The notes: generated by a model not told the origin, from the letters alone. Positions 726-16,559 are shown, counted from the first letter of the stretch. The stretch: DNA of 32,000 nt from Coprobacillaceae bacterium (GCA_963675515.1 OY776328.1:330001-362000); one strand, 5' to 3'. Numbers and translations are program-made.

Positions 726-755
726 AGCAGGGTGATTTTGAAAGGGGCGGGAGCG

Positions 756-1571
756 ATGAAAAATAAGATAATTGCAGCAGTTATTGCTTTTTTTATAATT
801 GTTTCCGCTTCTTTGATCGTCCTGGCGTTCAACCTGGATCCGATCAGTCTGAAAAAAGAGACATTCGTTTTTCAGTATGGCGAGCCCATACCGCAGGAGG
901 TTTATGAATACGCAAACGGCTCCAACGAGGTTTTGGATCTTTCGACTTTGGATCTCTCGCACGTCAAAGATGATATCGGTTCCTATCCGGCAAGTCTTAT
1001 TTACTACAATAAGACTTATGAATTCACAATCAAGATCGTGGATACCACTCACCCGGTTGCGGTGTTGAAACAGGTGCAGGTGAATATCGAGCCTGGCGAC
1101 ATGTTGACGGCCAGTGATCTTGTTGAGGTTACCGACAATTCAAGCTTCACGGCCTACTTCATCCTTGAAGACGGCTCAACCAGCGAAACCCAGACCTTCA
1201 ATGAAGTCGGGTCATATGTGGAAAACATCGTTGTCATCGATGCGTCGCAGAATGAATCGGCCAAGTTGCGAATCAAGATTGTGGTCCGCTATAACAATGA
1301 TATCCCGACCTTGACGGGAGTCGAGGACCTTGAAATCTATTTGGGCAAGGAGTTTGATCCGTTTGCGGGAGTAAAGGCGACCGATGGCATAGGCAATGAC
1401 ATCACCGACGATATAGTTATTTTGAAAAACAACGTAAATACCCAAAGTATCGGAGTCTACACAGTCATATATAAGATCACCAATGACCAGGGCAACACAA
1501 TCCAGGTCAACCGAACCGTTACGGTGATAGAAAATCCAGGGGTACTGGATTCGATGGAAAACAGAAATTGA
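756..1571 (+). CDS. Membrane-anchored protein with bacterial Ig-like (DUF5011-type) domain
   Basis: ATG at 756 lies behind AAAGGGGCGGGAG. The N-terminal TM is MKNKIIAAVIAFFIIVSASLIVLAF. The C-terminal IPTLTGVEDLEIYLGKEFDPFAGVKATDGIGNDITDDIVILKNNVNTQSIGVYTVIYKITNDQGNTIQVNRTVTV matches the Ig-like surface-domain pattern from memory. Confidence 0.7.
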   Translation: MKNKIIAAVIAFFIIVSASLIVLAFNLDPISLKKETFVFQYGEPIPQEVYEYANGSNEVLDLSTLDLSHVKDDIGSYPASLIYYNKTYEFTIKIVDTTHPVAVLKQVQVNIEPGDMLTASDLVEVTDNSSFTAYFILEDGSTSETQTFNEVGSYVENIVVIDASQNESAKLRIKIVVRYNNDIPTLTGVEDLEIYLGKEFDPFAGVKATDGIGNDITDDIVILKNNVNTQSIGVYTVIYKITNDQGNTIQVNRTVTVIENPGVLDSMENRN

Positions 1572-4373: not shown

Positions 4374-5576
4374 ATGTTACAATTAGAGGATTTCAAAGAA
4401 GCAAGAAAAAGGGTGGACGAGGTTATCTTGCAAACACCGCTGATATATTCACAGTCATTCAGTGATGAATGCGATAATCAGGTGTACATAAAACCCGAAA
4501 ATCTTCAGAAGACTGGAGCATTTAAAATCAGAGGTGCTTACAATAAGATAAGCAAACTGCCTGATGCGGCTAAAAGAAAAGGTTTGATTGCATCTTCAGC
4601 CGGAAACCATGCTCAAGGTGTAGCATATGCGGCTAAACAACAGGGCGTCGAAGCGACAATCGTAATGCCTGCAGGTACTCCTTTGATCAAAGTTAATGCA
4701 ACAAAGGCGTTGGGTGCCAAGGTTATCCTCCACGGGGAGGTCTATGATGAGGCTTATCAAAAAGCCTGCGAACTCCAAAAAGAGCATGATCTCACATTCA
4801 TTCACCCGTTCGATGACGAGGATGTTATCGAGGGGCAAGGCACCATCGCTTTGGAGATACTCGAAGAAATGCCTGACGTAGATGCGATAATTGTTCCCAT
4901 TGGCGGTGGCGGTCTGATTTCTGGGATCGCGGCCTGTGCCAAAGCCATCAATCCAAACATCAAGATCATTGGGGTGGAACCTGAGGGGGCAGCAAGTGCC
5001 GAAGCGGCAGTCAAAGAGGACAAGATCTGTCTTTTGTCGGAAGTGAATACCATCGCGGATGGAACGGCGGTAAAGCAAATAGGTGTCAAACCATTCGATT
5101 ATATCAGGCGATACGTCGATGACATCATTCTGGTCAACGATTATGAGCTGATGGAGGCGTTCCTTATACTGGTTGAAAAACACAAACTGGTGGCAGAGGG
5201 TTCTGGAATTTTAGCTTTGGCGGCGACAAAGAAGCTTAACTTCAAAGACAAAAAAGTGGTTGCTTTGGTTTCGGGAGGAAACATTGATGTTTTGACCATT
5301 TCATCGATGATCAATAAAGGACTTATCTCCCGTGGCAGAATTTTCAGCTTTTCCATTCAATTGCCTGACAAACCAGGCCAACTGGAATTAGTTTCACATG
5401 TGCTTAACGAACTTAATGCGAACGTGATTGGTGTCGAACATAACCAGTTCAAGAATTTCGCGCGTTTTTCCGAAGTTGAATTGCGGGTTACCTGCGAGAC
5501 TTCAGGTGAGGAACACATTGCAAAAATTATCGAAAGATTCAATGATTTGGGTTATGAGATAGTCAAAGTCAATTAG
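4374..5576 (+). CDS. ilvA: Threonine ammonia-lyase (threonine dehydratase), short form with one C-terminal ACT-like domain
   Basis: PLP-lysine context TGAFKIRGAYNK, plus SSAGNHAQGVAYAA and the glycine loop PIGGGGLISG. About 80 aa of regulatory tail follow; RBS is AGGAGG. Confidence 0.85.
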   Translation: MLQLEDFKEARKRVDEVILQTPLIYSQSFSDECDNQVYIKPENLQKTGAFKIRGAYNKISKLPDAAKRKGLIASSAGNHAQGVAYAAKQQGVEATIVMPAGTPLIKVNATKALGAKVILHGEVYDEAYQKACELQKEHDLTFIHPFDDEDVIEGQGTIALEILEEMPDVDAIIVPIGGGGLISGIAACAKAINPNIKIIGVEPEGAASAEAAVKEDKICLLSEVNTIADGTAVKQIGVKPFDYIRRYVDDIILVNDYELMEAFLILVEKHKLVAEGSGILALAATKKLNFKDKKVVALVSGGNIDVLTISSMINKGLISRGRIFSFSIQLPDKPGQLELVSHVLNELNANVIGVEHNQFKNFARFSEVELRVTCETSGEEHIAKIIERFNDLGYEIVKVN

Positions 5577-5597
5577 AAAGTATAATTGAATAATTGA

Positions 5598-5619
5598 GAT
5601 GCCTATGGCATCTTTTTTT
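5598..5619 (+). terminator. Rho-independent terminator after ilvA
   Basis: GATGCC (5598-5603) / GGCATC (5607-5612), loop TAT, then 7 T. Confidence 0.7.
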
Positions 5620-5742
5620 GTGGGCGGAAATGAGTTGATTGCCTTTCCCAACCGGCGAAATGGCTGGTGGCAACAGTCATATCATGCCCGAAGAACACAT
5701 CAGCAAGGCGCAATGTTCGAATCAAGCGGAAAGGAGTAGCAT

Positions 5743-5808
5743 ATGTTTTTGTTTGCGCTTATCTCATTTATAGTGGCCACGGTGCCAATGATTATCAAGT
5801 TATATTGA
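5743..5808 (+). CDS. Possible 21-aa hydrophobic micro-ORF (MFLFALISFIVATVPMIIKLY) upstream of the pilus-like operon
   Basis: AAAGGAG sits 7 nt upstream of the ATG and the peptide is entirely hydrophobic. There is no other support. Confidence 0.2.
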   Translation: MFLFALISFIVATVPMIIKLY

Positions 5809-5829
5809 AATATCTGAAAAGAGGATAGG

Positions 5830-8202
5830 ATGATGAACACTTTTGGAAAACGAAAGCCGATAATTGCCTTTCTAATACTACAAATTATAATTTATCTCTC
5901 AATCATCAATGTTAATGGCGCTTCGGCTCTGTCTGTATTGGAAAATGTTCCCTATCCTTTTTATCCTGCAATGAATTCGAACCTTTACCAGGTGGACGTC
6001 AATGTCGGATTCAACCTGAATCCCTCGAAGACACCACAGGTGGCGGGGACCGCCATTTCAGAAGGAATAAGTGAAGATATCAATTTGATCAAGGCTCTTT
6101 ATTATGGCTATCTGGGACCGGGCAATGTGATGGGCAATCTGACGCAGGATCAACAAAAAACCTATACCCATCTTCTGGCGAGCTATATCTATTCCGGTGA
6201 CATGGCCGGCTTCAATTTCTATACCCTGATGAGCTATTTCAACTGCAATCTTATTGATTACTACAATCAGCTGCCATATCTTGGCGACCCCAATCATTAT
6301 GAATTGGGTTTTACCGAAGACAACCTGGTGTTTACCAGTGACGGAATGGTTCAAAGGTCAAACAGTATCAGATTGGTTGCGACTGAGTGGACCTGGGGAT
6401 ATTTCGATCTTCCTGCTGGTCTGACATTGGTTAATGAGACTTCGGGAACGACAACTTCATCACAGCGATGTTACCTCCAGGCTCAGGACATGTTTCACTT
6501 TGAAGCATCCCCGGATTACCTGGGTGAGGTGGAAATCCTTGATTTCTACCTGAATCTCAACGTATTCAATTATCAAGTCCGCTTGGTCAAGACTCAAGGA
6601 ACGGTTGATCTGGCTGATCCGAACAATGACGGATATGCGACAGTAGGTTCTTTGATCAGGACACCAACCATCCTGAGTACGGCGTTGAGCCTGGACTTCC
6701 AGTTCAAGCCGAAGGTTGTAATCAAGACAATGTCGGACTCGTTGAGCTCGATAGCCGATCAGATGATCAAGATAACTGGTCCGGATTCGTTTGAGAAAAA
6801 CCGCCTTAGCGATGACGCGGGCGAAGTAGAACTTGTCAATCTGGAACCGGGGACGTATTACATCACAGCGACAGATGCGAACTTCCCTTATAAGGAAAAT
6901 ATTGGGACGTATAGTGTCACTGTTGATTTTCGCCAAAAGAAAAATGTCGAAGTGATTTTTGAAGAGATTCACCAGGCGACCGCCAGATACCATCTCAACA
7001 TGGAAGACCCACCACTGTTGGTTGAGGATTTCAATGTTCAGGCAGATTATGGCACCGTGGGGTTTGACGATTTTTCTATGGAAGGATATTCTCCAATAAG
7101 CATTTCGGTTGTAAAAGACGGAGTGGTTCAAGAGATATCGAACCAGACAGACGAGGTCGCCAACGGGATTGTAATCGAAGCGGTAAACTTCCCTGATTAT
7201 CTGACTTTTGAAAGTGGATCCTATTATCTCGATGTCAATATTGAAGCTGATTTAACCAAGGTGGCAATACCGTTATTTGATGGCCGCAATGGGGTGATAG
7301 ATGTGACAATGGTCGATGATACGAATTTGCGGGAGATGATTTTCACCGCCACCAGCGCAAGCTGCCACTTTCAGGAAGATGATGTGACCGAGTCGATGAC
7401 AATCGTCGATTTGAACATCGAACGTTTCAACAAGCCGGGAGTCGCGGTAGTCGAATTCGACTACCTGAGCCCTGATGGTTTGCATTTTAAAACAAGCTAC
7501 AACGTCCTTGTTGTCGACTTGAAAACCGGCGATCAGGCAAGCTTGGTCCGGTTCATCGATAAGGAAAATCTCAATGAACTAAACAGCGGATTTTTTGGAA
7601 CAGATACAGCCGCAAAAGAATTGTTAGGATCCAGCCTTGACAGGCAAAACCCGGCAATTTCATATCAGCTCGATGACAAAAGTTTGAAAATGATCAAGAA
7701 TGGATATCTGGAAGATCCCGACTTCGACATTTATCAAAACGAGACAATAGCCAACAGCATGACAAAATACGACAATCCAATTGAAGATGGTCAAATCACT
7801 GTGACCCAAACAGGCAGCCAGGCCATCCTGGTTTTTGAAGGGGGGGAAACCGTAGACGATAATGGTGTATATATGAGTATTTCGAAGTATCAAAACGGGC
7901 AGGTGGAATGCTTGCTTGGCTTAAAAGACGGGTATTTTGGTTCTTTGAGACTCAGTCTTGATGATATGTCAACCGATCTGACTGGAGCGATATTCGAAGG
8001 GGTAGTGGCGCAAAGCTATGACGGAACTCCGAAATATCCAATTCCGGTCATATATTTACAAGACAGAAAACTGATTCCAGGCCGTGATTTCCAGCTGGCA
8101 TATTCCAGCAACGTTTCGGTCGGGGAAGCGACCATCAATGTGATGGGTATCGATGATTATCAAGGTGGATTTACAATAAAATTCCAAATAGAAGGAGAAT
8201 AA
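5830..8202 (+). CDS. Large secreted surface protein (790 aa), first gene of the pilus-like operon; possible adhesin
   Basis: Signal peptide MMNTFGKRKPIIAFLILQIIIYLSIINVNGASA. ITGPDSFEKNRLSDDAGEVELVNLEPGTYYITATD resembles SpaA/Cna-B-type stalk domains. The C-terminal YDGTPKYP...YSSNVSVGEATINVMGIDDYQGGFTIKFQI resembles YDG...GNY Ig-like repeats of Firmicutes surface proteins. No LPXTG motif. The stop is 1 nt before the next ATG. Confidence 0.75.
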   Translation: MMNTFGKRKPIIAFLILQIIIYLSIINVNGASALSVLENVPYPFYPAMNSNLYQVDVNVGFNLNPSKTPQVAGTAISEGISEDINLIKALYYGYLGPGNVMGNLTQDQQKTYTHLLASYIYSGDMAGFNFYTLMSYFNCNLIDYYNQLPYLGDPNHYELGFTEDNLVFTSDGMVQRSNSIRLVATEWTWGYFDLPAGLTLVNETSGTTTSSQRCYLQAQDMFHFEASPDYLGEVEILDFYLNLNVFNYQVRLVKTQGTVDLADPNNDGYATVGSLIRTPTILSTALSLDFQFKPKVVIKTMSDSLSSIADQMIKITGPDSFEKNRLSDDAGEVELVNLEPGTYYITATDANFPYKENIGTYSVTVDFRQKKNVEVIFEEIHQATARYHLNMEDPPLLVEDFNVQADYGTVGFDDFSMEGYSPISISVVKDGVVQEISNQTDEVANGIVIEAVNFPDYLTFESGSYYLDVNIEADLTKVAIPLFDGRNGVIDVTMVDDTNLREMIFTATSASCHFQEDDVTESMTIVDLNIERFNKPGVAVVEFDYLSPDGLHFKTSYNVLVVDLKTGDQASLVRFIDKENLNELNSGFFGTDTAAKELLGSSLDRQNPAISYQLDDKSLKMIKNGYLEDPDFDIYQNETIANSMTKYDNPIEDGQITVTQTGSQAILVFEGGETVDDNGVYMSISKYQNGQVECLLGLKDGYFGSLRLSLDDMSTDLTGAIFEGVVAQSYDGTPKYPIPVIYLQDRKLIPGRDFQLAYSSNVSVGEATINVMGIDDYQGGFTIKFQIEGE

Positions 8203-8203
8203 G

Positions 8204-8359
8204 ATGAAAGATTTTTTAGGCGAATATGGTTTGATTGTGGTTACTGCTCTGGTGATTTTGGCTTTTGTGGTAATTGGTCCCGAAGTTGGGAACCAAGTCG
8301 GTGATGCCATCAAGACTCAAGTCACTAATATTACAACTCAGACCGCACCTGGAGCTTGA
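8204..8359 (+). CDS. Flp-like pilin, 51 aa, near-leaderless (not in the ORF track)
   Basis: GAAGGAG RBS (8191-8197). Translation is MKDFLGEYGLIVVTALVILAFVVIGPEVGNQVGDAIKTQVTNITTQTAPGA. It has the EYGLI core plus hydrophobic helix of Flp/Fap pilins. An in-frame TAG at 8189 excludes a longer leader. Confidence 0.7.
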   Translation: MKDFLGEYGLIVVTALVILAFVVIGPEVGNQVGDAIKTQVTNITTQTAPGA

Positions 8360-9375
8360 TGGACTTGATTGACAAGATGATTCCCCGAGAGATATTCGGG
8401 GAATTGTCGGTATTTTTGGATGACGAGAATATCACCGATATCAATTACAATGGGAAAAACGTGTGGGTTGACCATATATTCAAGGGCCGGTATAAGGCAG
8501 ATGTCATATTGAGCGAAGAGTTTATCGATACATTTATCATGAAAATTAAAAACAGCGTATCCAGGAATTTCAATATCGAACATAACGTGCTGGAAGCCGA
8601 AACCGAACAATTGAGAATTTCAGTCATCCACCACTCGGTGGCGAAGACCGGTACAGCAATTTCAATAAGGAAGTCTCCACCAAGGCAAAGGATGAATGCG
8701 AAAATGATGATTGAGACGGGATACTGTTCCCAGGCTATAATTGATTTTTTATCCAATTGTATAAGATCATCTTGCAATATAGTCATTGCCGGGACAACCG
8801 GATCGGGTAAGACGGAATTGCTCAAGTGGCTGACCAATTTCATCGAAGCCAACGAGAAGGTCATCACGATTGAGGACAACCTGGAAATCCATTACCGGCA
8901 GATAAATCCGGGAAAGGACTGTATTGAATTGAAGGTTGACGAGAAACTGTTCAACTACTCAAAAGCGATCAAGACATCATTGCGCCAGCTGCCACAGTGG
9001 ATCATACTTTCCGAGGCCCGCTCGGTCGAGGTCAAGTATCTCCTTGAGACGTTCTCAACTGGCCATAATGGAATCACCACCATCCATTGCGACGATGTGC
9101 GAAAGATACCAAAACGAATAAAAAACATGATCCAGGCCGACATTGACGAGTCAGTCCTTTTTGACGACATTTTCAGTTTTATTGATATCGGAATATTGAT
9201 TTCCAAAGAAATAGTCAACAATAAGATCCAACGTCATATCGAGCAAATATGCATATATGATTTTGTGGAAAACAGAAGGGAGATATTGATGGTTTACGAA
9301 AGGGGCCATATCCCCTTGCGTCTGGAATCACCGAAATTGAAACGGAAATTTGAAGGTCTTCAAGGAGGAATTTAA
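8359..9375 (+). CDS. TadA/CpaF/VirB11-class secretion ATPase (338 aa)
   Basis: ATG overlaps the pilin stop (TGATG). ITDINYNGKNVWV N-domain, LRISVIHHSV...AISIRK, Walker A AGTTGSGKTELL, ITIEDNLE, a LRQLPQWIILSEARSVEV Asp-box/Walker B region, and His box TGHNGITTIHCDD. The last codons and stop may be supplied by the IS left end. Confidence 0.8.
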   Translation: MDLIDKMIPREIFGELSVFLDDENITDINYNGKNVWVDHIFKGRYKADVILSEEFIDTFIMKIKNSVSRNFNIEHNVLEAETEQLRISVIHHSVAKTGTAISIRKSPPRQRMNAKMMIETGYCSQAIIDFLSNCIRSSCNIVIAGTTGSGKTELLKWLTNFIEANEKVITIEDNLEIHYRQINPGKDCIELKVDEKLFNYSKAIKTSLRQLPQWIILSEARSVEVKYLLETFSTGHNGITTIHCDDVRKIPKRIKNMIQADIDESVLFDDIFSFIDIGILISKEIVNNKIQRHIEQICIYDFVENRREILMVYERGHIPLRLESPKLKRKFEGLQGGI

Positions 9376-9431
9376 TAGCTGAAAATATGCAATCATATCC
9401 GGCTTCCCGATGAAATCCCTTAAAAATCAAT

Positions 9432-9695
9432 GCGGACGTTGGATCTGGAATTAATTATAAGAAAAAAGGGTTGAGGGAATTGCTGCAATTAATCATCCAA
9501 ATAAAATCGGAAAAGCTGTTGTGTTATATAAAGACATGCTTTTGCGTTTTGGATATGAATTAATTTAGTATATGGCGAGTCTATATAATTGTGAAATAGA
9601 AATAGTCGACAATACACCAGAAACATACCAAAACAGGGGGTCAATGCAAAAGAAGGGATAAAACCAAAAAGAAAATCGAAGCCGAGTTTCTATGA
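9432..9695 (+). pseudogene. tnpA: tnpA (IS607-type serine recombinase) fragment, lacking the HTH and catalytic-Ser region, with stops and frameshifts
   Basis: Reads ADVGSGINYKKKGLRELLQLI...LLCYIKTCFCVLDMN*. A frameshifted reading gives ...VVLYKDMLLRFGYELI, the KDRLxRFG motif region. Coordinates are approximate. Confidence 0.6.
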
Positions 9696-10486
9696 TGATA
9701 ATGTTAAAATCATATTCACTGATACTGATGTCAAGCTTGAAGAGCTATCTGATTCTACAAAAGGCAACAAAAGAAAATTCAATATGGTAAAACTTGCTGA
9801 AAAATGAATAATAGCAACTGATTGAAAGTGTTCCAATCCTAGAGTCACTTATGATGGATTGAATTTTTGGATAAGTGTCGGAGTTTGGATAGGTTTGGGA
9901 ATTAAAGACTTGGCTATTTGTTCAGATGTTGGCACCCACAAGAATATAAACAAATCCAACGAAATTAGGAAATTTAATAAGAAAAGGCGTGGATTGCAAC
10001 GCAAGATAAGTAGGAAACACTTAAAAAATAAGGAAGGGAGCAAATACTGAAAACAAGCAATATTATAAAAAGGGAAAAAGAACTTTCAAGATAAATCGTC
10101 GTTTAACCAATATTCGTCAAAACTGTCAACATCAAATTACAAACGAGATAATAAAGCGAAATCCTAAGTTTATTACACTTGAGGATTTGAATGTCAATGG
10201 CATGATGAATAACAAATATCTCTATAAAGCCATTTGGCAACAAGGATTGCATGAATTCAAGAGAATCTTGCAATATAAGTGTGTTTGGAATGGCATTAAA
10301 TTGAGACAAGCGGATAGATTCTATCCCAGTTCAAAAACATGTTCTCGCTGCGGATCAATCAAGAAAGATTTAAGGCTTTTTGATAGAGTATATAAATGTG
10401 AAGGTTGTGGATTTGAGTTGGATAGGAATTTAAACGCCAGTTTGAATTTGAGAGATGCAAAACAATATAAAATACTCACATCTTAA
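9696..10486 (+). pseudogene. tnpB: tnpB (RuvC-like RNA-guided nuclease) pseudogene, N-terminal third missing, with frameshifts and stops
   Basis: WIGLGIKDLAI (the RuvC-I GIDLG motif with the Asp codon now GGT), IRKFNKKRRGLQRKISRK, a TGA after GSKY, and a frameshift. An open tail then follows: NIRQNCQHQITNEI...ITLEDLNVNGM (RuvC-II), CSRCG...CEGCG zinc finger, and DRNLNASLNL (RuvC-III). Only the last 99 aa form an ORF (10187-10486). Confidence 0.8.
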
Positions 10487-10657
10487 AGTGGGTTTATGTG
10501 TACTGTGCGTTAAACATGAATTTACGCCTTTGGAGTGTTATTTCAAATGCAAGTAGCTTAATCGTAGAATATGCAAAAGCGGACACGATGAATAAGTAAT
10601 GGAACATAGAAATTTGAATATAAAAGTTTATGACCTTTTATAAGTTTTCAGTAACGG
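10487..10657 (+). ncRNA. Candidate omega-RNA (reRNA) scaffold tail of IS copy A
   Basis: A 171-nt non-coding stretch between the tnpB stop and the right end, conserved (roughly 85 percent by eye) with 14185-14355. TnpB guide RNAs are known to be encoded at this position. No structure was computed. Confidence 0.35.
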
Positions 10658-10662
10658 CAACT

Positions 10663-12126
10663 ATGAAAATTGAGCTCAAACGTTATTTCAAAGTTCAAAG
10701 CGAGGTTGAACGGTACGGTTACAACTTTTCAATCAGGCGTTTTTATCAGGTGATTGCCTTTTCGGTGATGCTTGTCGCAATCCTTGGAATTGTGTTCAAA
10801 CTGGGCCGTGTTTATCTCGGTTGTGTGATTTTCACCATGATCGCCTGTCTGCCCCAGATAATTGTCGTAACCTATCGGGGGCTCGATTCGCAGCAGCGAT
10901 TCGATGACTTGAACAATTACCTGGAGCAGCTGGTGATGTCATTCAACCGTCGTGGCAATATTCTGGTTGCTCTCAAAGAGACAAGACAGATCTTCGCCAA
11001 CGGCCAGATGGCTGTGACGCTGGACCAGGCTATCGCTCATATAACTGGGGCAAGAGGCGGCAATGCTTACCAGGAAGGATTGAGCATCATTGAAGAGCGC
11101 TACAGCTGCTCAAGGATCAGTAAAGTTCACAATTTTCTTTTTGAAGTTGAAAAATTGGGCGGTGACTATGGAGATGTCCTCAATCTGATTGAACAGGAAA
11201 GACTGCTGTGGCAGGAACGAGTTTACCTTTTGGCGGCACAAAAAAAGCAGATTGAAAAGAATATATATTTGTCATGTGTGATGGCGACGATAATTGGAGC
11301 GGTGATGGGCATGATCCTGCCAAGTGAGCTAAATGTATTTGCCCTGGGGTATCTGCAACTTCTTTCAACCGGATACCTGGTTGTCGTGATTGTAATGGTC
11401 ACTGTGGTCCATAGCTTGCTTAGCGGCGGCTATTTTGAGGAACTGCGATTCCTTGATAATGATGAATTCGACAAACACGTGCGCCTGTATCGTCAAAACA
11501 GTTTGTTCAATAAGGGCGATATCGTATCCTTGGCGATTGTATTTGCGATTGGCGCTCTTGTCGTGTTCACTGGACAAGGGATAGGGGTTATTCTGTCCGG
11601 TCTTATTTTGACAATCATTCTGGCGAGAGTTTTGGGCCGGAAGAAAAGAAGCCTGAAAATCATCAGGTCAAATCTGGAGATTGCCTTCATGCACTGGATG
11701 CTCGACATTTCATTGCTGCTGCAAAACAACAACATCCATATGGCGGTGATTCAGTCAATTGAAAAAGCGCCCGGGATACTTCGGTCAGATCTTGAATTGC
11801 TTAATGAAAATCTGGAGAAATTTCCGAATTCGATGGTGCCATATCAAAATTTTCTTAGTGAATTCGATATCCCTGATGTGAAGTCGGTCATGAGGTCGTT
11901 TTATGCTTTGGACATGAACGGTACTGGGAGTAACGGAAAATTCCTGAACGATCTGCTTGAGCGCAACAATCATCTGGTGGACAAGACGGAAAGGATGGCG
12001 ATGGAGAACCGTTTGGCCTATATAAATGTCTTTTTGTATCTGCCGATGCTGCTGGCGACATTCAAATTGCTTGGGGACCTTACCGGGTTTATGATGGTCC
12101 TGATTGTGAAAATGAAAGGAGGTTAG
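10663..12126 (+). CDS. Fused TadB-TadC-like pilus platform protein (two T2SSF-type halves, 487 aa)
   Basis: Two repeats of TM segments plus a ~110-aa helical cytoplasmic domain plus TM pair (about aa 60-230 and aa 330-487). Examples are LNNYLEQLVMSFNRRGNILVALKETRQIF...LGGDYGDVLNLIEQE and LEIAFMHWMLDISLLLQNNNIHMAVIQSIEKAPGILRSDL. The native start is taken as ATG 10663, because the ORF-track start at 10630 lies inside the IS right end. Confidence 0.7.
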   Translation: MKIELKRYFKVQSEVERYGYNFSIRRFYQVIAFSVMLVAILGIVFKLGRVYLGCVIFTMIACLPQIIVVTYRGLDSQQRFDDLNNYLEQLVMSFNRRGNILVALKETRQIFANGQMAVTLDQAIAHITGARGGNAYQEGLSIIEERYSCSRISKVHNFLFEVEKLGGDYGDVLNLIEQERLLWQERVYLLAAQKKQIEKNIYLSCVMATIIGAVMGMILPSELNVFALGYLQLLSTGYLVVVIVMVTVVHSLLSGGYFEELRFLDNDEFDKHVRLYRQNSLFNKGDIVSLAIVFAIGALVVFTGQGIGVILSGLILTIILARVLGRKKRSLKIIRSNLEIAFMHWMLDISLLLQNNNIHMAVIQSIEKAPGILRSDLELLNENLEKFPNSMVPYQNFLSEFDIPDVKSVMRSFYALDMNGTGSNGKFLNDLLERNNHLVDKTERMAMENRLAYINVFLYLPMLLATFKLLGDLTGFMMVLIVKMKGG

Positions 12127-12131
12127 GTCCG

Positions 12132-12230
12132 ATGATTGAAATAATTGGCGAATATGGCCAGGTTATTGTGCTTGGGATTTTCAGTACGATATTGATAAGT
12201 GCTTTTGGTTATCTGGCGACACTTATATGA
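12132..12230 (+). CDS. Flp-like micro-pilin, 32 aa (not in the ORF track)
   Basis: AAGGAGG upstream. Translation is MIEIIGEYGQVIVLGIFSTILISAFGYLATLI, with the same M-x4-GEYG plus helix as 8204. Its stop overlaps the next ATG (ATGA). Confidence 0.55.
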   Translation: MIEIIGEYGQVIVLGIFSTILISAFGYLATLI

Positions 12231-12370
12231 GAGCGCTGGTGGGTGAATACGGAATGGTTGTTTTGGGAGTTACTGTGACTTTCATCCTGTTGGAACTTGT
12301 TGGGGAACTTTTGGGAAGCGACATGCTTTTTGAACTGGTGCGAATCAAGGCGGACTGCTTGTTCTTATGA
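12227..12370 (+). CDS. Flp-like micro-pilin, 47 aa (not in the ORF track)
   Basis: Translation is MRALVGEYGMVVLGVTVTFILLELVGELLGSDMLFELVRIKADCLFL. ATGA overlaps occur at both ends. Confidence 0.55.
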   Translation: MRALVGEYGMVVLGVTVTFILLELVGELLGSDMLFELVRIKADCLFL

Positions 12371-12834
12371 AACATGTGATTGAGAGTTACGGCCAGGTGA
12401 TAGTAGGAATGCTTTTGGTTATGGCGGCACTGACATTTTTGAATTTCTCATCGAACGAGGCGCTTGAACCTTCATTGAAGAGCGCTGTGACTGTCGACGG
12501 AATTGAAGTTCCAGCTCCACAGTTCGTTCCAAATAATATTATATCGTATCCCGGATTGGTTGATCCGTTTTCCCTGATCGCCAATACTGACGAAACTCTT
12601 GATGGATTTGCCTACTGGAAAACCCAAGGCAATATTATCTATTATAGTGATGGCGAATACAATAAAATCATGTTTCAAAGTGAGTTTGTCTCGGGTTCTT
12701 TGCTCGATTACACCTCTGTCGATTTCCATGACTACCACTGTTTCATTGACAAGGTAAAAGTAACGGCAATAATCAAAAGCCGGATAAGTGTTAAAAACGC
12801 CACTATAATGATTGAGGAGGAGTTTGATAGTTGA
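12367..12834 (+). CDS. Pilin-like / TadE-class pseudopilin, 155 aa
   Basis: MKHVIESYGQVIVGMLLVMAALTFLNF, then a ~125-aa globular part. The last 4-5 codons and the stop probably derive from the IS copy B left end. Confidence 0.65.
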   Translation: MKHVIESYGQVIVGMLLVMAALTFLNFSSNEALEPSLKSAVTVDGIEVPAPQFVPNNIISYPGLVDPFSLIANTDETLDGFAYWKTQGNIIYYSDGEYNKIMFQSEFVSGSLLDYTSVDFHDYHCFIDKVKVTAIIKSRISVKNATIMIEEEFDS

Positions 12835-12903
12835 AAATAAGTTGTAAAACTACTCAATTAACCATCAAATACATGTGAGTTCGATATTTGATTATCGTCG
12901 CTT

Positions 12904-13501
12904 TTGAAAAACTACCAACAGTGATTTTTCAGAAATATTTGGAGTTACAGCTCAAACTTTAAGAAATTGGGACAATAAAGGCAAGTTACATCCCCATCAC
13001 ACTTCGTCAAATGGATATAGATATTACTCTCACAATCAGATGCATCAAGTTATGAACATAAGGCCTAATATAGAAAGATTGACAATTGGGGATTGTCGGG
13101 TGTCTGGCCACAAACAAAATGACGATTTGGAACGACAAATTCAAAAAATGAGAACTTATCTCTTATCACAAGGTAAACTAATTCAAATAATTGAAAATAT
13201 TGGCTGTGGAATCGACTATAAGAAAAAAGGATTGAGAGATTTGATTAAGCAAATAATGCAAAACAAAGTTGATGAGGTGGTTGTGTTAAATTAAAGACAG
13301 GTTGTCAAGATTTGGATTTGAACTATTGGACATTATGCCAGCCTATATAATCGAGAAATAGAAGTAGTTGATAATACACCAAAAAATAATCAACAAGAGC
13401 TAATATCCAATTTGGTTCAAATAATTGCCTATTTCAGCTGCAAGCTTCAATGCAAAAGAAAGAATAAAACCAAAATGAAAATCGAAGCCGTGTTTCTATG
13501 A
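12904..13501 (+). pseudogene. tnpA: tnpA (IS607-type MerR-HTH serine recombinase) pseudogene
   Basis: A TTG start gives MKNYQQ, followed by a frameshift, then SDFSEIFGVTAQTLRNWD...RVSGHKQNDDLERQIQKMRTYL...GCGIDYKKKGLRDLIKQI...VVVLN*. Shifted frames then give KDRLSRFGFELL and YNREIEVVDNTP...QELISNLVQIIAYFSCKL. Coordinates are approximate. Confidence 0.75.
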
Positions 13502-14184
13502 TGATAATGTTGAAATCAAATTCACTGATACTGATTGCAAGTGTTCCAATCCTAGAGTTACTTATGATGGATTGAATTTTTGGATAAGCATCGGAGTTGA
13601 ATGCGATAATATCAGTGAGATTGACAAAAATAATCATGGTATTGGAATAGATTTGGGAATTAAAGACTTGGCTATTTGTTTAGGTGGCAACACCTACAAG
13701 AATATAAACAAGTAAGATAGAATCAGGAAATTTAATAAGAAAAGGCGTAGATTGCAACGCTATATAAGTAGGAAATACTTAAAAAACAAGGAAGGGAGCA
13801 AATACTGCAAAACAAGCAATATTATAAAAAGGGAAAAAGAACTTTCAAGATAAATCGTCGTTTAACCAATATTCGTCAAAACAGTCAACATCAAATTACA
13901 AACGAGATAACAAACATCTCTCTAAAGCCATTTGGCAACAAGGATTGCATGAATTCAAGAGAATCTTGCAATATAAGTGTGTTTGGAATGGCATTTAATT
14001 GAGACAAGCGGATAGATTATATCCCAGTTCAAAAACATGTTCTCATGGCAAATCAATCAAGAAAGATTCAAAGCTTTTTGATAGAGTTAATAAATGTGAA
14101 GATTGTGGATTTGAGTTGGATAGGGATTTAAACTCCAGTTTGAATTTGAGAGATGAAATACAATATAAAATACTCACATCTTAA
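13502..14184 (+). pseudogene. tnpB: tnpB pseudogene (N-terminus deleted, RuvC-II segment deleted, zinc-finger Cys lost)
   Basis: GIGIDLGIKDLAIC is retained (RuvC-I). A TAA follows NINK. About 60 nt present in copy A (KRNPKFITLEDLNVNGMMNNKY) are missing. CSHGK replaces CSRCG. The tail CEDCGFELDRDLNSSLNL is retained. Confidence 0.8.
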
Positions 14185-14355
14185 AGTGATTTTATGTGTA
14201 CTGTACGTTAAACAGGAATTTACACCTTTGGAGTGTTATATCAAATGCAAGTAGCTTTACCGTAGAACAAGCAAAAGCAGACACGATGAATGAGGAATGG
14301 AACATGAAAGTTTGAATCTAAATAATTATGACTTTTTATAAGTTTTCAGTAACGG
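14185..14355 (+). ncRNA. Candidate omega-RNA (reRNA) scaffold tail of IS copy B
   Basis: Collinear with 10487-10657 and ends at the same ...CAGTAACGG. Confidence 0.35.
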
Positions 14356-14360
14356 TACAG

Positions 14361-14678
14361 ATGAAAAATACGATTGAACTCTATATGTCAATAATCATAA
14401 TCACGATATTCGGCGTGCTGGCAGCCAACATGATCGCGATAAACGTCGAGGCGAACAATGTCCGCAGCTACCAAAACTCCTGCATCCAGGCGATTGAGAA
14501 CAGCGGTCATGATCAGGGAGTGATAGATCAGCTGATTTCAGATTCACCTTATGATCTGAGTGTCGAGAGGATCGTCAGCGATGGCAGCGTCTTAAGCAAA
14601 GTCCAGGTCGGCTATCATTACGTGATCCCGCTTCTCAATGTCAATGAATACTACAGCATATCGGGGTTGGCGAGATGA
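14361..14678 (+). CDS. Pilin-like / TadE-class pseudopilin, 106 aa
   Basis: MKNTIELYMSIIIITIFGVLAANMIAI has the same register (x-x-x-x-E-L-Y) as the other pilin-like proteins. The ORF-track start at 14328 lies inside the IS right end. Confidence 0.6.
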   Translation: MKNTIELYMSIIIITIFGVLAANMIAINVEANNVRSYQNSCIQAIENSGHDQGVIDQLISDSPYDLSVERIVSDGSVLSKVQVGYHYVIPLLNVNEYYSISGLAR

Positions 14679-15226
14679 AACAGGCATTGATGGCTGCAAG
14701 TCTTCTAGCCATGTCAATTGCGACTATAGTGATAATACTTTCATCCAATTTTCAGGTCAACAAAGCCACGATGTTCGAACAGACAGTCAGTCAGAGCCTG
14801 ACAAAGAGCCTTGAGGATATGTGTTTTTATCATCCGGATCTAAACTATGAACAAATCATCAATGGATATCTAAGCGATCTTGCGGTGAATCTCAATGGGA
14901 CAAACAGAATCAAAGTCGACGTCATCGCAATCGATCGCAATTATGGAATCATCGATACAATCAATGAACTTACCTACAACGATTTTTTCAACAACGAAAA
15001 GACAATCACATTAAGGAAAACAATCATCCACAATCCCCAAATCCAGGATGAATATTTCCGGGTCGACTTTGTCTTTGAAGATGCTTTCAAAGGAGCTTTG
15101 TTTGTGAATCCGGGCACTACCATCGCCCAGGCTATCAGCGATTTTGCTTTTCAGGCGGATTGGAATCTGAGTGGCTACGACATTCAAGAACCGATTGAAA
15201 GAGACATTGTTATATACGCAAATTAA
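14675..15226 (+). CDS. Membrane-anchored pilus accessory protein (TadF/TadG-like position), 183 aa
   Basis: ATGA overlap with the upstream gene. A single N-terminal TM, MKQALMAASLLAMSIATIVIILSS. It is the last gene before the terminator. No recognisable catalytic motif. Confidence 0.55.
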   Translation: MKQALMAASLLAMSIATIVIILSSNFQVNKATMFEQTVSQSLTKSLEDMCFYHPDLNYEQIINGYLSDLAVNLNGTNRIKVDVIAIDRNYGIIDTINELTYNDFFNNEKTITLRKTIIHNPQIQDEYFRVDFVFEDAFKGALFVNPGTTIAQAISDFAFQADWNLSGYDIQEPIERDIVIYAN

Positions 15227-15249
15227 TCCGATTGTATCGGATTTTTTTT
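15225..15249 (+). terminator. Rho-independent terminator ending the pilus-like operon
   Basis: AATCCGAT (15225-15232) / ATCGGATT (15236-15243), loop TGT, then an 8-T run. Confidence 0.75.
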
Positions 15250-15297
15250 GCTTTACATCAATTTGGAAAAATGCGCCATATTTTTGCAACTTTTCCC

Positions 15298-15326
15298 TTG
15301 ATTTCCAAAAACAAATTGTGTATAAT
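15298..15326 (+). promoter_or_regulatory. Sigma-A promoter of the carAB leader (extended -10)
   Basis: TTGATT (15298-15303), 17 nt ending in TGTG, TATAAT (15321-15326). Confidence 0.6.
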
Positions 15327-15351
15327 CTTTCAAGGAAAAGGAGTGATTGTG

Positions 15352-15426
15352 ATGCCAAAACTGACAGCTGAAGTAAATATTTGTGTATCACAAGGCAAAT
15401 TTTTTATCGTTGGTTTTTGTTGTTAA
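15352..15426 (+). CDS. Possible 24-aa leader peptide (MPKLTAEVNICVSQGKFFIVGFCC)
   Basis: AAAAGGAG sits 8 nt upstream. The stop TAA (15424-15426) overlaps the first bases of the terminator stem. Confidence 0.3.
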   Translation: MPKLTAEVNICVSQGKFFIVGFCC

Positions 15427-15458
15427 CACGTTATCCTTATAGGTGACGTGTTTTTTTT
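15425..15458 (+). terminator. Leader terminator (attenuator) upstream of carA
   Basis: AACACGT (15425-15431) / ACGTGTT (15446-15452) with an inner CCT/AGG stem, followed by 8 T. It lies 22 nt upstream of the carA ATG and RBS. Confidence 0.65.
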
Positions 15459-15479
15459 AAAAATAATAAGGAGGATTTT

Positions 15480-16559
15480 ATGAAAGCATATTTAATTTTG
15501 GAAGATGGAAATGTGTTTGAAGGTGAAAGCATCGGCGCTAAAAAAGAAATCATTAGCGAGTTTGTATTCAACACGTCGATGACAGGGTACCTGGAAGTGT
15601 TGACAGACCCATCTTACTGTGGCCAATCGGTTGTAATGACATACCCGTTGATTGGGAATTACGGAGTGGCTTTGGAAGATCAGGAATCTTCAAGAGCTTT
15701 CCTGTCGGGATTCGTTGTCAAGGAGCTGGCGCGATTGGGAAGCAATTTTAGAAAAAACGTCGAATTGTCACAATACCTGGTTTCTCAAGATGTCGCTGGA
15801 ATTCAGGGTGTCGACACCAGAGCGATCACTAAAATCATCCGTAAAAAAGGCTGCATGAACGGCATGATCACTACAAACAAATATGAAAACCTGGATGAAG
15901 TTCTTGAAAAAATCAAAGCTTTCAAAGTTACCGGAGTTGTGGAAAAAACAACTTGCGATCAACCTTACACTTTAGGTGAAGGTGACAAAAGAGTTGCCTT
16001 GATGGATTTCGGGGCCAAACGCAATATCGCAAAATCACTGGTAAAGCGCGGATACCAAGTGACCGTTTATCCTGCAAGCACGAAGGCTGAAACAGTGTTG
16101 GCTGAAAATTATGATGGAATAATGCTTTCAAACGGAGCCGGAGACCCGGAAGAAAACGTTGAAATCATCAAGGAAATCAAGAAACTCAGCGAATCAAATG
16201 TGCCTATTTTCGCAATTTGCCTGGGTCACCAGCTGATGGGTCTGGCTCACGGATTCCATACTGAAAAAATGAAATACGGACACCACGGTGCAAACCATCC
16301 GGTAAAGGATCTGGTAAGCGGTCGCGTCTATATTTCAACTCAAAACCACAACTACGTAATTGACGAAAAAACCATCGATCCTAACGTCGCTGAAGTATGG
16401 TTCAAGAATGTCAACGACGACACTCTGGAAGGTCTGGTTTATAAAAACAAAAACATCAAGACAGTTCAATTCCATCCGGAAGCCTGTGCCGGGCCTTTGG
16501 ATACGGATGCCTTATTTGATGAATTCACAATAATGATGGGAGGAAATGTTAATGCCTAG
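15480..16559 (+). CDS. carA: Carbamoyl-phosphate synthase small (glutaminase) subunit
   Basis: MKAYLILEDG..F.G N-terminus, catalytic GICLGHQL (here AICLGHQLM) and a late HP..E motif (FHPEA). Confidence 0.92.
   Translation: MKAYLILEDGNVFEGESIGAKKEIISEFVFNTSMTGYLEVLTDPSYCGQSVVMTYPLIGNYGVALEDQESSRAFLSGFVVKELARLGSNFRKNVELSQYLVSQDVAGIQGVDTRAITKIIRKKGCMNGMITTNKYENLDEVLEKIKAFKVTGVVEKTTCDQPYTLGEGDKRVALMDFGAKRNIAKSLVKRGYQVTVYPASTKAETVLAENYDGIMLSNGAGDPEENVEIIKEIKKLSESNVPIFAICLGHQLMGLAHGFHTEKMKYGHHGANHPVKDLVSGRVYISTQNHNYVIDEKTIDPNVAEVWFKNVNDDTLEGLVYKNKNIKTVQFHPEACAGPLDTDALFDEFTIMMGGNVNA

Follow-up and report, generated by a model that had tools for sequence, protein, structure and literature searches.

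A compact Tad-like operon with apparently leaderless pilins and a TED-fold adhesin homologue in a Coprobacillaceae genome

The defining trait of type IV pilins is a leader removed by a dedicated peptidase, and a T2SSF-type platform together with Flp-like pilins belongs to type IV filaments, not to T4SS. Prepilin peptidases may be encoded apart from the systems that use them and be shared among several, and an origin of Tad from archaeal pili via gene fission has been proposed (PMC6668835). Classical tad loci with tadV exist in Erysipelotrichales (PMC12786226). The closest described relatives of the operon analysed here are genes 34-41 of conjugative plasmids of the pLS20 family, which encode the Tie adhesin, p36, the "VirB11" p37, p38, p39, p40 and p41. 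Tie carries no sorting signal and is required for mating in liquid (PMC8092201), and it forms foci in the wall fraction (PMC11730352). Plasmid relatives of the ATPase sit in conjugation operons and have been published as VirB11 (PMC8557374), p37 being regarded as VirB11 of a T4SS; according to a review, VirB11 homologues and pili are both lacking from Gram-positive conjugation systems (PMC12857230).

The window, a stretch of 32,000 nucleotides from a Coprobacillaceae bacterium, contains between ilvA and carAB a single operon of nine ORFs, all on the + strand (Table 1). As originally predicted, hairpins with T-runs bound it at both ends (called at 5596-5614 and 15225-15243), and ORF calls returned the gene coordinates and sizes proposed earlier. 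Genes are separated by gaps of 1 or 5 nt, or overlap by 1 or 4 nt.

Table 1. Features of the operon and its borders (positions within the window).
Feature	Position	Strand	Evidence and remarks
Terminator-like hairpin and T-run, 3' of ilvA	5596..5619	+	GAGATGCCTATGGCATCTT TTTTTGTGGG; upstream operon limit
790-aa secreted surface protein	5830..8202	+	Pfam TED_2, SpaA; Sec-type signal peptide
51-aa Flp-like major pilin, apparently leaderless, MKDFLGEYGLIVV...	8204..8359	+	Flp_Fap; Tad pilin chains
338-aa secretion ATPase (339 aa from 8356)	8359..9375	+	Pfam T2SSE
Decayed IS607-family element, copy 1	~9379..10657	+	tnpB fragments; RAGATH-18 RNA 10527-10599
487-aa polytopic platform protein, two T2SSF-like halves	10663..12126	+	AlphaFold, Foldseek, hhalign
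32-aa pilin-like protein, MIEIIGEYG...	12132..12230	+	also kept in L004, L005
47-aa pilin-like protein, MRALVGEYG...	12227..12370	+	ORF call; compared with L004
155-aa protein, pilin-type N terminus MKHVIESYG..., candidate minor pilin	12367..12834	+	no Pfam family
Decayed IS607-family element, copy 2	~12835..14355	+	serine-recombinase tnpA fragment 13040-13294; tnpB fragments; RAGATH-18 RNA 14225-14297
105-aa N-terminal-helix protein, MKNTIELYM..., candidate minor pilin	14361..14678	+	present in 77 loci
183-aa N-terminal-helix protein, no Glu in helix	14675..15226	+	present in 77 loci; no Pfam family
Terminator-like hairpin and T-run	15225..15249	+	downstream operon limit

The ATPase matched T2SSE in Pfam (E 1.3e-25), in agreement with the class originally assigned to it. 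On NCBIfam models it scored 100-117 bits for VirB11, TadA-like and TrbB and 89 bits for FlaI, all far below cut-off, and a true CpaF ranked the same models identically at 200-330 bits. Its nearest solved relatives in a PDB search were archaeal GspE (2oap, the best match), CpaF and FlaI, which lay nearer by bit score than solved VirB11s. The Walker A motif is GTTGSGKT, the remaining motifs having been read by eye. Judged from these matches, the protein is a secretion ATPase of the CpaF/VirB11/FlaI superclade, of the class that forms hexamers. The T2SSF-like character proposed for both halves of the platform protein was recovered by profile-profile and fold comparison, but Pfam was blind to it, as no T2SSF match was found there, nor any match in a PDB profile search. 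In hhalign comparisons, the two halves were homologous to each other (E 2e-6) and matched an alignment of TadB, TadC and GspF with probabilities of 94.9% and 96.5% (E 4e-8 and 8e-10), GspF itself giving no direct match to the platform. The AlphaFold model (pLDDT 93.8) had as its only high-probability Foldseek matches T2SSF cytoplasmic domains (PilC, EpsF or OutF), with probabilities of 0.75-0.91, E-values that were not significant and, for the best of them, target TM-scores of 0.59-0.67. The platform is thus modelled as one protein with two T2SSF-like domains. The fusion of TadB and TadC suggested earlier holds in that a single polypeptide is present, but the order is reversed, the N half matching TadC best and the C half TadB. 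Failure of both proteins against the T2SSE and T2SSF families, an outcome that the original prediction had allowed for, was not what was found.

The 51-aa protein matched Flp_Fap with an E-value of 0.0034, by itself below the Pfam cut-off, and its family profile matched cryo-EM chains of Tad pilins (8u1k, E 8e-4; 8u2b, E 5e-3), with E7-Y8 aligned to E5-Y6 of the mature Tad pilin. Flp1_like and Flp_Fap were each matched by 11 of 23 family members. Some pilins also match Arch_flagellin weakly. The near absence of a leader, already noted for this operon, extends to the relatives: at codon level, in 217 of the 221 pilin-type genes of 83 related loci, the codon seven positions ahead of the conserved Tyr (Y-7) is exactly where a start (ATG, TTG or GTG) occurs, and the residue at Y-7 is Met in 201 of 224 pilin-type ORFs and Leu or Val in 17 more. 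An SD-like motif precedes this start in 81% of cases versus 4% of control positions (AAGGAG in the 51-aa gene), and public annotations likewise give the 51-aa form. The resulting N terminus, M-K-x-F-L-E-E-Y-G, exceeds mature Flp by two residues, so that the start codon lies two residues ahead of the equivalent of the cleavage site, and the place of the obligatory Gly(-1) is taken by Lys, Arg or Thr. No class III signal peptide was found on the pilin-type proteins of these loci. Furthermore, the longest ORF starts at Y-7 in 145 of 224 pilin-type genes, which leaves no space for a leader in them. Some related loci hold two or three copies of the major pilin. Five further proteins of the operon have an N-terminal hydrophobic helix; in the 155-aa protein, about 100 residues of C-terminal sequence follow a pilin-type N terminus. 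A relationship of the three larger subunits (155, 105 and 183 aa) to TadE, for which a search had been suggested, was not borne out, since no Pfam family was matched, TadE included, and hhalign against six TadE proteins gave probabilities of 1% or less. The 183-aa protein may sit at the tip of the fibre or cap it.

Two metagenome-assembled genomes, L004 (Erysipelotrichaceae) and L005 (Coprobacillaceae), carry all nine genes in identical order at the same ilvA-carAB site, free of IS copies; the operon is thus no chance run of ORFs. Between the window and L004, dN/dS was 0.03-0.22 where computable, tiny genes included, with dS saturated and the 105-aa gene not covered; these values indicate purifying selection on the operon genes. 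Gene order is kept across about 80 genomes. Clustered at 50% identity, the platform family comprises 835 representatives, and a search with the ATPase gave 1,129 relatives. Those with names belong for the most part to Lachnospiraceae and Erysipelotrichales, and many were sampled from the gut. Cultivable species among the carriers include Faecalicatena contorta, Lactonifactor longoviformis and Ruminococcus sp. OA3. By these counts, the system is a member of a very large uncharacterised family common in gut Firmicutes. No A24 prepilin peptidase was detected in the window or, by single-sequence phmmer with GspO and Ralstonia TadV queries, within 10 kb of 85 loci; neither TadZ (ParA/MinD-like) nor TadG was found in the window or, again by single-sequence phmmer, near those loci. 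The relatives might have proved to be ordinary tad loci, complete with tadV, tadZ and a long-leader Flp; instead, they carry the same reduced set. Altogether, the original prediction of a Tad/Flp-like machine whose parts list is non-canonical stood as to ATPase, platform, pilins and the absence of TadZ and A24 peptidase from the locus, but it had overlooked the TED-like adhesin, the size of the family, the relation to pLS20 and the separation of SDs from start codons by the IS copies.

The 790-aa protein combines a Sec-type signal peptide, an N-terminal TED fold (TED_2, E 1.2e-12, above the Pfam cut-off) and a SpaA-like domain (E 6e-4), and it matched plasmid TIE-type adhesins in BLASTP (E 2e-6 and 2e-7). 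It shares the TED fold with TIE/thioester-domain adhesins, but these bear a thioester Cys in a [YFL]C-hydrophobic-polar motif and a partner Gln, and it has neither: in the alignment, the motif YCI[ND] is replaced by FNLN (FSVN in L004), and the Y-Q of the plasmid proteins by Y-A. Unlike chromosomal TIE proteins, which have an LPXTG sorting signal, it ends in ...GFTIKFQIEGE, with no LPXTG, C-terminal anchor or hydrophobic tail. From its sequence, it is a TED-fold adhesin homologue devoid of the thioester residues. A gene for a large secreted protein directly adjoins the module in most related loci. In Lachnospiraceae, this partner is usually a different protein with a conserved C-terminal tag of about 45 residues; the tag was found in 51 loci, and on comparison it was not present in the window adhesin.

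The pLS20-family plasmids share the gene order of the window, with a TED adhesin devoid of a sorting signal upstream of the ATPase, the platform and small N-terminal-helix proteins. The ATPases are 30-34% identical, the N half of the platform matched p38 (E 1e-8) and the C half p39 (E 4e-10) in hhalign, and the 105-aa protein matched p40 weakly (probability 48%, E 1.8e-4). Two genes encode the plasmid platform, whereas that of the window is fused, and the plasmid adhesin retains the thioester Cys, required for its function, which the window adhesin lacks. The candidate pilins of the plasmids (47-50 aa) also begin directly at Met, but with MLDQNTDR and no E-Y motif. The plasmid module lies within a T4SS operon, whereas the window is chromosomal and was found to contain no VirB4, VirD4, relaxase or VirB6/VirB8-type channel proteins. 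On these similarities, the window module is a chromosomal cousin of pLS20-family genes 34-41 in which the platform is fused.

In the genome analysed here, the operon is broken at two intergenic junctions by decayed IS607-family copies: copy 1 parts the SD of the platform gene from its ATG, and copy 2 does so for the 105-aa gene. The SDs thus cut off are AAGGAGGA and GAGGAGGA; when both sites were inspected, no SD was found in the new sequence upstream of either ATG. Counted from the ATG that the IS provides, the platform ORF would be 498 aa and the 105-aa ORF 116 aa. The IS copies had received only passing mention in the original prediction. Because the two genes are parted from their ribosome-binding sites, expression of this operon copy is uncertain and possibly poor, and the insertions, of which copy 1 also holds a terminator-like hairpin, may have silenced it. 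Nevertheless, all nine ORFs are intact despite heavy decay of both IS copies, suggesting that selection on the genes continued once the IS copies had inserted, and read-through with weak initiation could sustain some synthesis. We regard an operon rendered non-functional in this genome by polar IS607 remnants as an unlikely, albeit serious, alternative.

We consider it rather likely that the operon encodes a minimal type IV filament machine, nearest to Tad (type IVc), whose leaderless pilins display or export the adhesin, and this filament variant would probably be independent of a prepilin peptidase. The short basic Met-Lys N terminus could keep the pilins N-in in the membrane, from which the ATPase-driven platform would pull them out and polymerise them with no prepilin peptidase involved; the three larger subunits may prime or cap the fibre, and the fibre may hold the Sec-secreted partner protein or drive it through the wall. 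This last step is proposed because the adhesin gene adjoins the module and the adhesin has no other anchor, neither a sortase signal nor a membrane anchor. A rival proposal is a T2SS-like piston: a short pseudopilus, and no long fibre, would drive the Sec-exported adhesin across the thick wall, where it would be released or deposited. The many minor-pilin-like subunits per major pilin fit such a device, as do the Sec signal of the partner, the C-terminal tag of 51 loci, which could be a recognition signal, and the localisation of Tie in wall foci (PMC11730352); the major pilin, however, is of the typical fibre-forming Flp type, matches Tad subunits and is duplicated or triplicated in some loci, and we judge the piston improbable.

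Two further explanations are given little credence. An eroded ordinary tad locus, with prepilins processed by TadV, PilD or ComC encoded elsewhere, TadZ acting in trans and wrong start calls, would accord with unlinked, shared peptidase genes (PMC6668835) and with the classical tad loci of Erysipelotrichales (PMC12786226). Against it stand the SD-supported starts at Y-7, the absence of Gly(-1), the lack of leader space in 145 of 224 pilin-type ORFs, and the maintenance of the same reduced set under purifying selection in about 80 genomes. Equally doubtful is a fragment of a conjugative T4SS left behind by an integrated conjugative element, the ATPase being a VirB11 for DNA transfer and the small proteins T4SS membrane subunits. 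The best plasmid relatives do lie beside VirD4 in conjugation operons and were published as VirB11 (PMC8557374), a coupling protein is encoded within 10 kb of four Lachnospiraceae loci, and the loci L002 and L003 adjoin ParA, ParB and SSB. Nevertheless, a coupling protein is near only those 4 of the roughly 80 genomic loci, the window is housekeeping chromosome without VirB4, VirD4 or relaxase, the T2SSF-type platform and Flp-like pilins belong to type IV filaments, and the ATPase scores nearer to archaeal GspE, CpaF and FlaI than to solved VirB11s.

Should the filament reading be correct, so widespread a leaderless family would alter the definition of type IV pilins, provide the simplest known assembly machine for study and perhaps constitute a major unrecognised adhesion system of the gut microbiota. 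The link with pLS20 makes it testable how Tie remains attached to the donor surface without an anchor signal, and it challenges the claim that Gram-positive conjugation lacks VirB11 homologues and pili (PMC12857230). More tentatively, the system could be the first class of type IV filaments with leaderless, peptidase-free pilins and an unsplit platform in archaeal order, possibly a living intermediate between archaeal pili and Tad, and pLS20 genes 36-41 could be a long-missed pilus-like device that anchors or presents Tie.

Compared with the type IV filament superfamily as a whole, the operon has a PilB/VirB11-superfamily ATPase, a T2SSF-fold platform and Glu-bearing N-terminal-helix pilins, but neither the class III signal peptide nor the dedicated aspartic peptidase was found at these loci. 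With the Tad/Flp systems of monoderms such as Bifidobacterium breve and Micrococcus luteus it shares a very small Flp-type pilin with E-Y at the start of the hydrophobic helix, an ATPase that probably belongs to the CpaF/TadA superclade, TadB/TadC-related T2SSF-type platform domains, several pilin-like accessory proteins and a single one-strand locus. Tad prepilins, in contrast, have a leader ending in Gly(-1) that is removed by TadV (A24), and Tad uses two paralogous single-domain platform proteins in place of one 487-aa two-domain polypeptide. The operon further departs from Tad in the absence of TadV, TadZ and TadG from the locus, in accessory proteins that have N-terminal helices yet no match to TadE, in an ATPase that is short (338 aa) and under every curated family cut-off, and in the inclusion of a large adhesin gene.

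The T2SS pseudopilus and the Com pilus likewise combine a major with several minor pilin-like proteins, an ATPase and a platform, and the outward movement of a Sec-exported protein may be a role shared with the former; their pilins, however, are larger, with G-F-T-L-x-E leaders cut by GspO or ComC, and their ATPases fall in the GspE/ComGA clade. Archaeal pilins also differ, as PibD, FlaK or EppA cleaves off their class III signal peptide, whereas those described here are leaderless and their hosts are Firmicutes. Archaeal type IV pili use FlaI/GspE-like ATPases, and an archaeal GspE is the best solved match of the window ATPase. They share with the operon a single platform protein of two T2SSF domains in the TadC-like, TadB-like order described by Denise et al., and a fused platform in this order is relevant to the hypothesis that Tad arose from archaeal pili through gene fission (PMC6668835).

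The evidence, all of it computational, makes the nine-gene system between ilvA and carAB a predicted member of the type IV filament superfamily that would work most like a Tad pilus, and the system falls outside Tad on several of the tests that define that group. We regard its parts list, family relations, leaderless starts, conserved order and adjacency to a large secreted protein as established. A scan using one genome per species gathered 147 ATPase relatives, of which the best 80 loci were retained; the module is widespread and, as far as we could find, uncharacterised.

Within the plus-strand set of nine ORFs, junctions take the form of gaps (1 or 5 nt) or overlaps (1 or 4 nt). Elsewhere, the window carries ordinary chromosomal genes: gltX, asnB, those for HAD hydrolases and a response regulator, carAB and the pst-phoU operon. 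When the same gene order was sought in relatives free of insertion sequences (IS), as had been proposed, it was present at the ilvA-carAB site of an Erysipelotrichaceae MAG (L004) and a Coprobacillaceae MAG (L005), both with the same nine genes and no IS. Thus, the window holds a copy, broken up by IS, of a design that is intact elsewhere. In the comparison of the window with L004, eight of the nine genes, including those of 32 and 47 aa, gave dN/dS values of 0.03-0.22, with saturated dS and no estimate for the 105-aa gene. The ilvA and carA proteins of the two genomes are 96-97% identical, with dS about 1 (window 4374-16559, L004:6013-15372), whereas the operon proteins are 54-94% identical, with dS of about 1-3.8 and values above 3 for the adhesin, the ATPase and the 47-aa gene. 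This greater divergence of the operon relative to its flanks suggests either that recombination has replaced the allele or that the surface parts evolve fast. Downstream, about 30 nt 5' of the carA start, a strong terminator-like hairpin of 11 pairs followed by a T-run (15425-15452, plus strand) had no Rfam match and may be a candidate pyrimidine-responsive attenuator.

Coordinates of the features discussed (window positions unless a related locus is named)
Feature	Position	Strand	Remark
ilvA	4374-5576		5' neighbour of operon
Terminator-like hairpins with T-runs	5596-5614 and 15225-15243		either side of the nine-ORF set
790-aa adhesin ORF	5830-8202	+	
Replaced TED thioester positions	5830-6730		adhesin residues about 55-70 and 265-275
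51-aa pilin ORF	8204-8359	+	
338-aa ATPase ORF	8359-9375	+	
IS junctions, copy 1	9370-9385 / 10650-10665		
RAGATH-18 RNA (Rfam RF03064)	10527-10599 and 14225-14297	+	64 and 72 bits; right end of each IS copy
487-aa platform ORF	10663-12126	+	
32-aa ORF	12132-12230	+	
47-aa ORF	12227-12370	+	
155-aa ORF	12367-12834	+	
IS junctions, copy 2	12828-12840 / 14348-14363		
105-aa ORF	14361-14678	+	
183-aa ORF	14675-15226	+	
carA	15480-16559		3' neighbour of operon
Tagged partner proteins	L002:14413-17937, L025:14538-19340, L039:7159-9756		3 of 51 loci
MLDQNTDR proteins	L084:11950-12262, L085:12099-12456, L092:10202-10605, L093:6011-6163		plasmid loci

Two gaps in the operon (about 9379-10657 and 12835-14355) are occupied by related, decayed IS607-family elements, which between them carry a serine-recombinase fragment and TnpB fragments. 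The RAGATH-18 RNA at their right ends may be a TnpB guide-RNA scaffold, although both tnpB genes are in fragments here. The two targets are near-identical, GAGGA(A/G)TTT(A/G)ATAG on the left and (C/T)A(A/C)(C/A)(T/G)ATGAAAA on the right, each copy having inserted right after a TAG, between the Shine-Dalgarno motif and the ATG of the downstream gene. The right end of each copy provides an in-frame ATG (MTFYKFSVT...), through which the platform reaches 498 aa in the public annotation, and the IS-derived sequence now 5' of each ATG lacks a Shine-Dalgarno motif. Owing to this separation and to the new upstream sequence, it is uncertain whether this genome expresses the platform and the last two genes.

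As the original prediction had it, the 51-aa protein is an Flp-like pilin, and so are its relatives: a 23-member family profile matched two Tad pilins solved by cryo-EM, 8u1k (E 8e-4) and 8u2b (E 5e-3), aligning E7-Y8 of the family with E5-Y6 of the mature Tad pilin, and Flp1_like (best E 3e-6) and Flp_Fap were each matched by 11 of the 23 members. A consensus M-K-x-F-[LI]-E-E-Y-G is common to 224 pilin-type ORFs from 83 loci, and the same N terminus is found in the 32-, 47- and 155-aa proteins. Met lies exactly seven residues before the Tyr in 201 of the 224, with Leu or Val there in 17 more; counted by codon, ATG, TTG or GTG occupies this position in 217 of 221 genes. A Shine-Dalgarno-like motif precedes the start in 81% of cases, against 4% of control positions, and in 145 of the 224 the longest possible ORF begins at this position, so that no leader is possible there. 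From start codons, Shine-Dalgarno motifs and longest ORFs, the pilin-type N terminus is therefore predicted to lie two residues upstream of the mature Flp start, bearing out the earlier view of pilins with almost no leader. The place of the obligatory Gly(-1) is taken by Lys, Arg or Thr, and the public gene calls also give 51 aa as the pilin length. No report of leaderless pilins, or of Tad in Lachnospiraceae, was found in the literature searched.

The larger subunits (105, 155 and 183 aa) matched neither TadE nor Flp, nor any Pfam family. The 105-aa protein keeps a Glu in its N terminus (MKNTIELYM), and the 183-aa protein has none. Between gltX and asnB (732-1571, plus strand), the window also encodes a protein of 279 aa that contains a Bact_surface_Ig-like domain (E 9e-15), a domain weakly matched by two 155-aa-type pilin-like proteins of other loci (E 0.03 and 0.13).

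Neither an A24 peptidase nor a ParA-like gene is present in the window. Moreover, phmmer with GspO, Ralstonia TadV, two TadZ/CpaE, TadB/TadC and TadE, single-sequence queries of limited reach, had no match up to 10 kb from the ATPase at any of 85 loci, in agreement with the predicted absence of TadZ and an A24/TadV peptidase from the locus. The search itself works, since a CpaF query recovered the ATPase in all 86 sequences searched.

Assignment of the ATPase to the TadA/CpaF/VirB11 class held, with a Pfam T2SSE match at E 1.3e-25 and a Walker A motif, GTTGSGKT, in its sequence. Its NCBIfam scores were 100-117 bits for VirB11, the TadA-like family and TrbB and 89 for FlaI, all far under cut-off, compared with 200-330 bits for a genuine CpaF against the same models. 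Among solved structures, the best matches were archaeal GspE (2oap), CpaF and FlaI, with true VirB11s ranking behind. From its sequence, we read it as branching deeply within the CpaF/VirB11/FlaI group, at a point that only a tree would fix more precisely.

The two T2SSF-like halves proposed for the platform were recovered by profile-profile and fold comparison, but not by the family searches: no Pfam or NCBIfam family matched, PDB searches with 7- and 121-sequence profiles gave nothing relevant, and hhalign against E. coli GspF alone found no match. A word-indexed search yielded only 7 relatives and an exhaustive profile search 835 cluster representatives, most near 500 aa. The two halves matched each other (probability 89%, E 2e-6) and, against an alignment of 11 TadB/TadC/GspF sequences from annotated plasmids and E. 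coli, the N half scored 94.9% (E 4e-8) and the C half 96.5% (E 8e-10), both matches being located on the T2SSF domain. By a modest margin and with thin reference alignments, the N half is closer to TadC (E 5e-7) than to TadB (1e-5), and the C half closer to TadB (E 4e-8) than to TadC (2e-6). An AlphaFold model from the 121-sequence alignment (pLDDT 93.8, pTM 0.86) superseded that from 7 sequences, which reached a pLDDT of only 70. Foldseek E-values of this model against the PDB were not significant; the matches at probability 0.75-0.91 were all PilC/EpsF/OutF cytoplasmic domains or the PilC chain of a type IVa pilus architectural model, and the best domain matches, which span 105-120 columns at an rmsd of about 4 A, had target-normalised TM-scores of 0.59-0.67.

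The 790-aa adhesin carries a Sec-type signal peptide, a TED_2 domain (Pfam, E 1.2e-12) and a SpaA-like domain, with no LPXTG motif or C-terminal anchor in its sequence; sequence searches against the PDB gave chance matches only. TED adhesins from conjugative plasmids of Gram-positive bacteria are its homologues (E 2e-6 and 2e-7). Where YCI[ND] has its thioester Cys, the window has Asn and L004 has Ser; in the window, the partner Gln is replaced too. In Tie, the adhesin of plasmid pLS20, Cys68 is needed and a C68S change abolishes function (PMC8092201). Binding by the window adhesin is probably non-covalent. The large secreted proteins that flank the module in Lachnospiraceae loci are different ones, with LRR_5, Flg_new, ChW or SpaA domains. 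A conserved C-terminal tag of about 45 residues (consensus EEVWHFSGEDIKKIKAYMREREDPFSQETNQEFLQRF), covered by no Pfam family, occurs on the neighbouring large secreted protein in 51 loci and is absent from the window adhesin, the plasmid TED proteins and the TED clade; it could serve the machine as a signal for docking or recognition.

In the proposed mechanism, Met-Lys would hold the pilin N terminus in the cytoplasm, and platform and ATPase would extract and stack pilins without cleavage, while the two Glu of the pilin consensus may be pairing partners of the alpha-amine and of Lys2. Priming, or formation of the tip, would fall to a complex of the three larger subunits, in which the 183-aa protein, lacking Glu, is the putative cap by analogy with GspK and by which the adhesin would be held or pushed out. 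A short pseudopilus working as a piston fits the data as well as a Tad-like filament does.

Among plasmid proteins, those that match the ATPase best (30-34% identity) are "VirB11" proteins of pLS20-family Bacillus plasmids and related Listeria, Enterococcus and Paraclostridium plasmids. There, a TED or SpaA adhesin, an N-terminal-helix protein of about 125 aa and the ATPase are followed by a pair of membrane proteins (about 240-275 aa), one further protein (about 120 aa), small 47-50-aa proteins and VirD4, except that an Enterococcus plasmid has the 47-50-aa proteins 5' of the ATPase instead. The pLS20-family plasmids encode one or two copies of this single-helix protein, always starting MLDQNTDR, which had no significant match to the Flp-like family and looks like a second, unrelated kind of leaderless pilin candidate. 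A related CpaF/VirB11 gene lies on B. anthracis pXO1 (record 73233-76426), where the arrangement differs from the pLS20 type, since an AAA-family ATPase, possibly TadZ-like, comes before it and a single 310-aa protein after it. A coupling protein lies within 10 kb in four Lachnospiraceae loci, single loci are also near a topoisomerase or SNF2 helicase, and L002 and L003 adjoin ParA, ParB and SSB; most loci, the window included, have none of these neighbours within 10 kb. Some genomes carry two module copies (L007 and L018 in Clostridium sp. C105KSO13; L013 and L049 in Ruminococcus sp. MAG_3), one copy adjoining a conjugative coupling protein and the other 1511-aa and 499-aa ORFs, presumably glutamate synthase genes from their N termini.

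On pLS20, Tie (gene 34) is required for mating in liquid and has no sorting signal, its anchoring being unexplained (PMC8092201); gene 37 is given as VirB11 and genes 36 and 38-41 as unknown (PMC8557374). A 2024 study (PMC11730352) and a December 2025 review (PMC12857230) describe Gram-positive conjugation systems as lacking pili and, in the review, also VirB11 homologues. No filament or pilus reading of genes 36-41 was found in the literature searched, whose coverage of journals was incomplete. By hhalign, the platform N half matched p38 (95.6%, E 1e-8) and the C half p39 (96.7%, E 4e-10), with a weak match of the 105-aa family to p40 (48%, E 1.8e-4). For specialists, the interest lies in pilins that apparently need no peptidase and in this kinship with genes of Gram-positive conjugation operons that have had no explanation. 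The platform, encoded by two genes in pLS20-family plasmids, is fused into one protein in the window, where its halves appear to stand in the order TadC-like, TadB-like. Denise et al. report this order for archaeal two-domain platforms and base on it their case for an origin of TadB and TadC by fission (PMC6668835).
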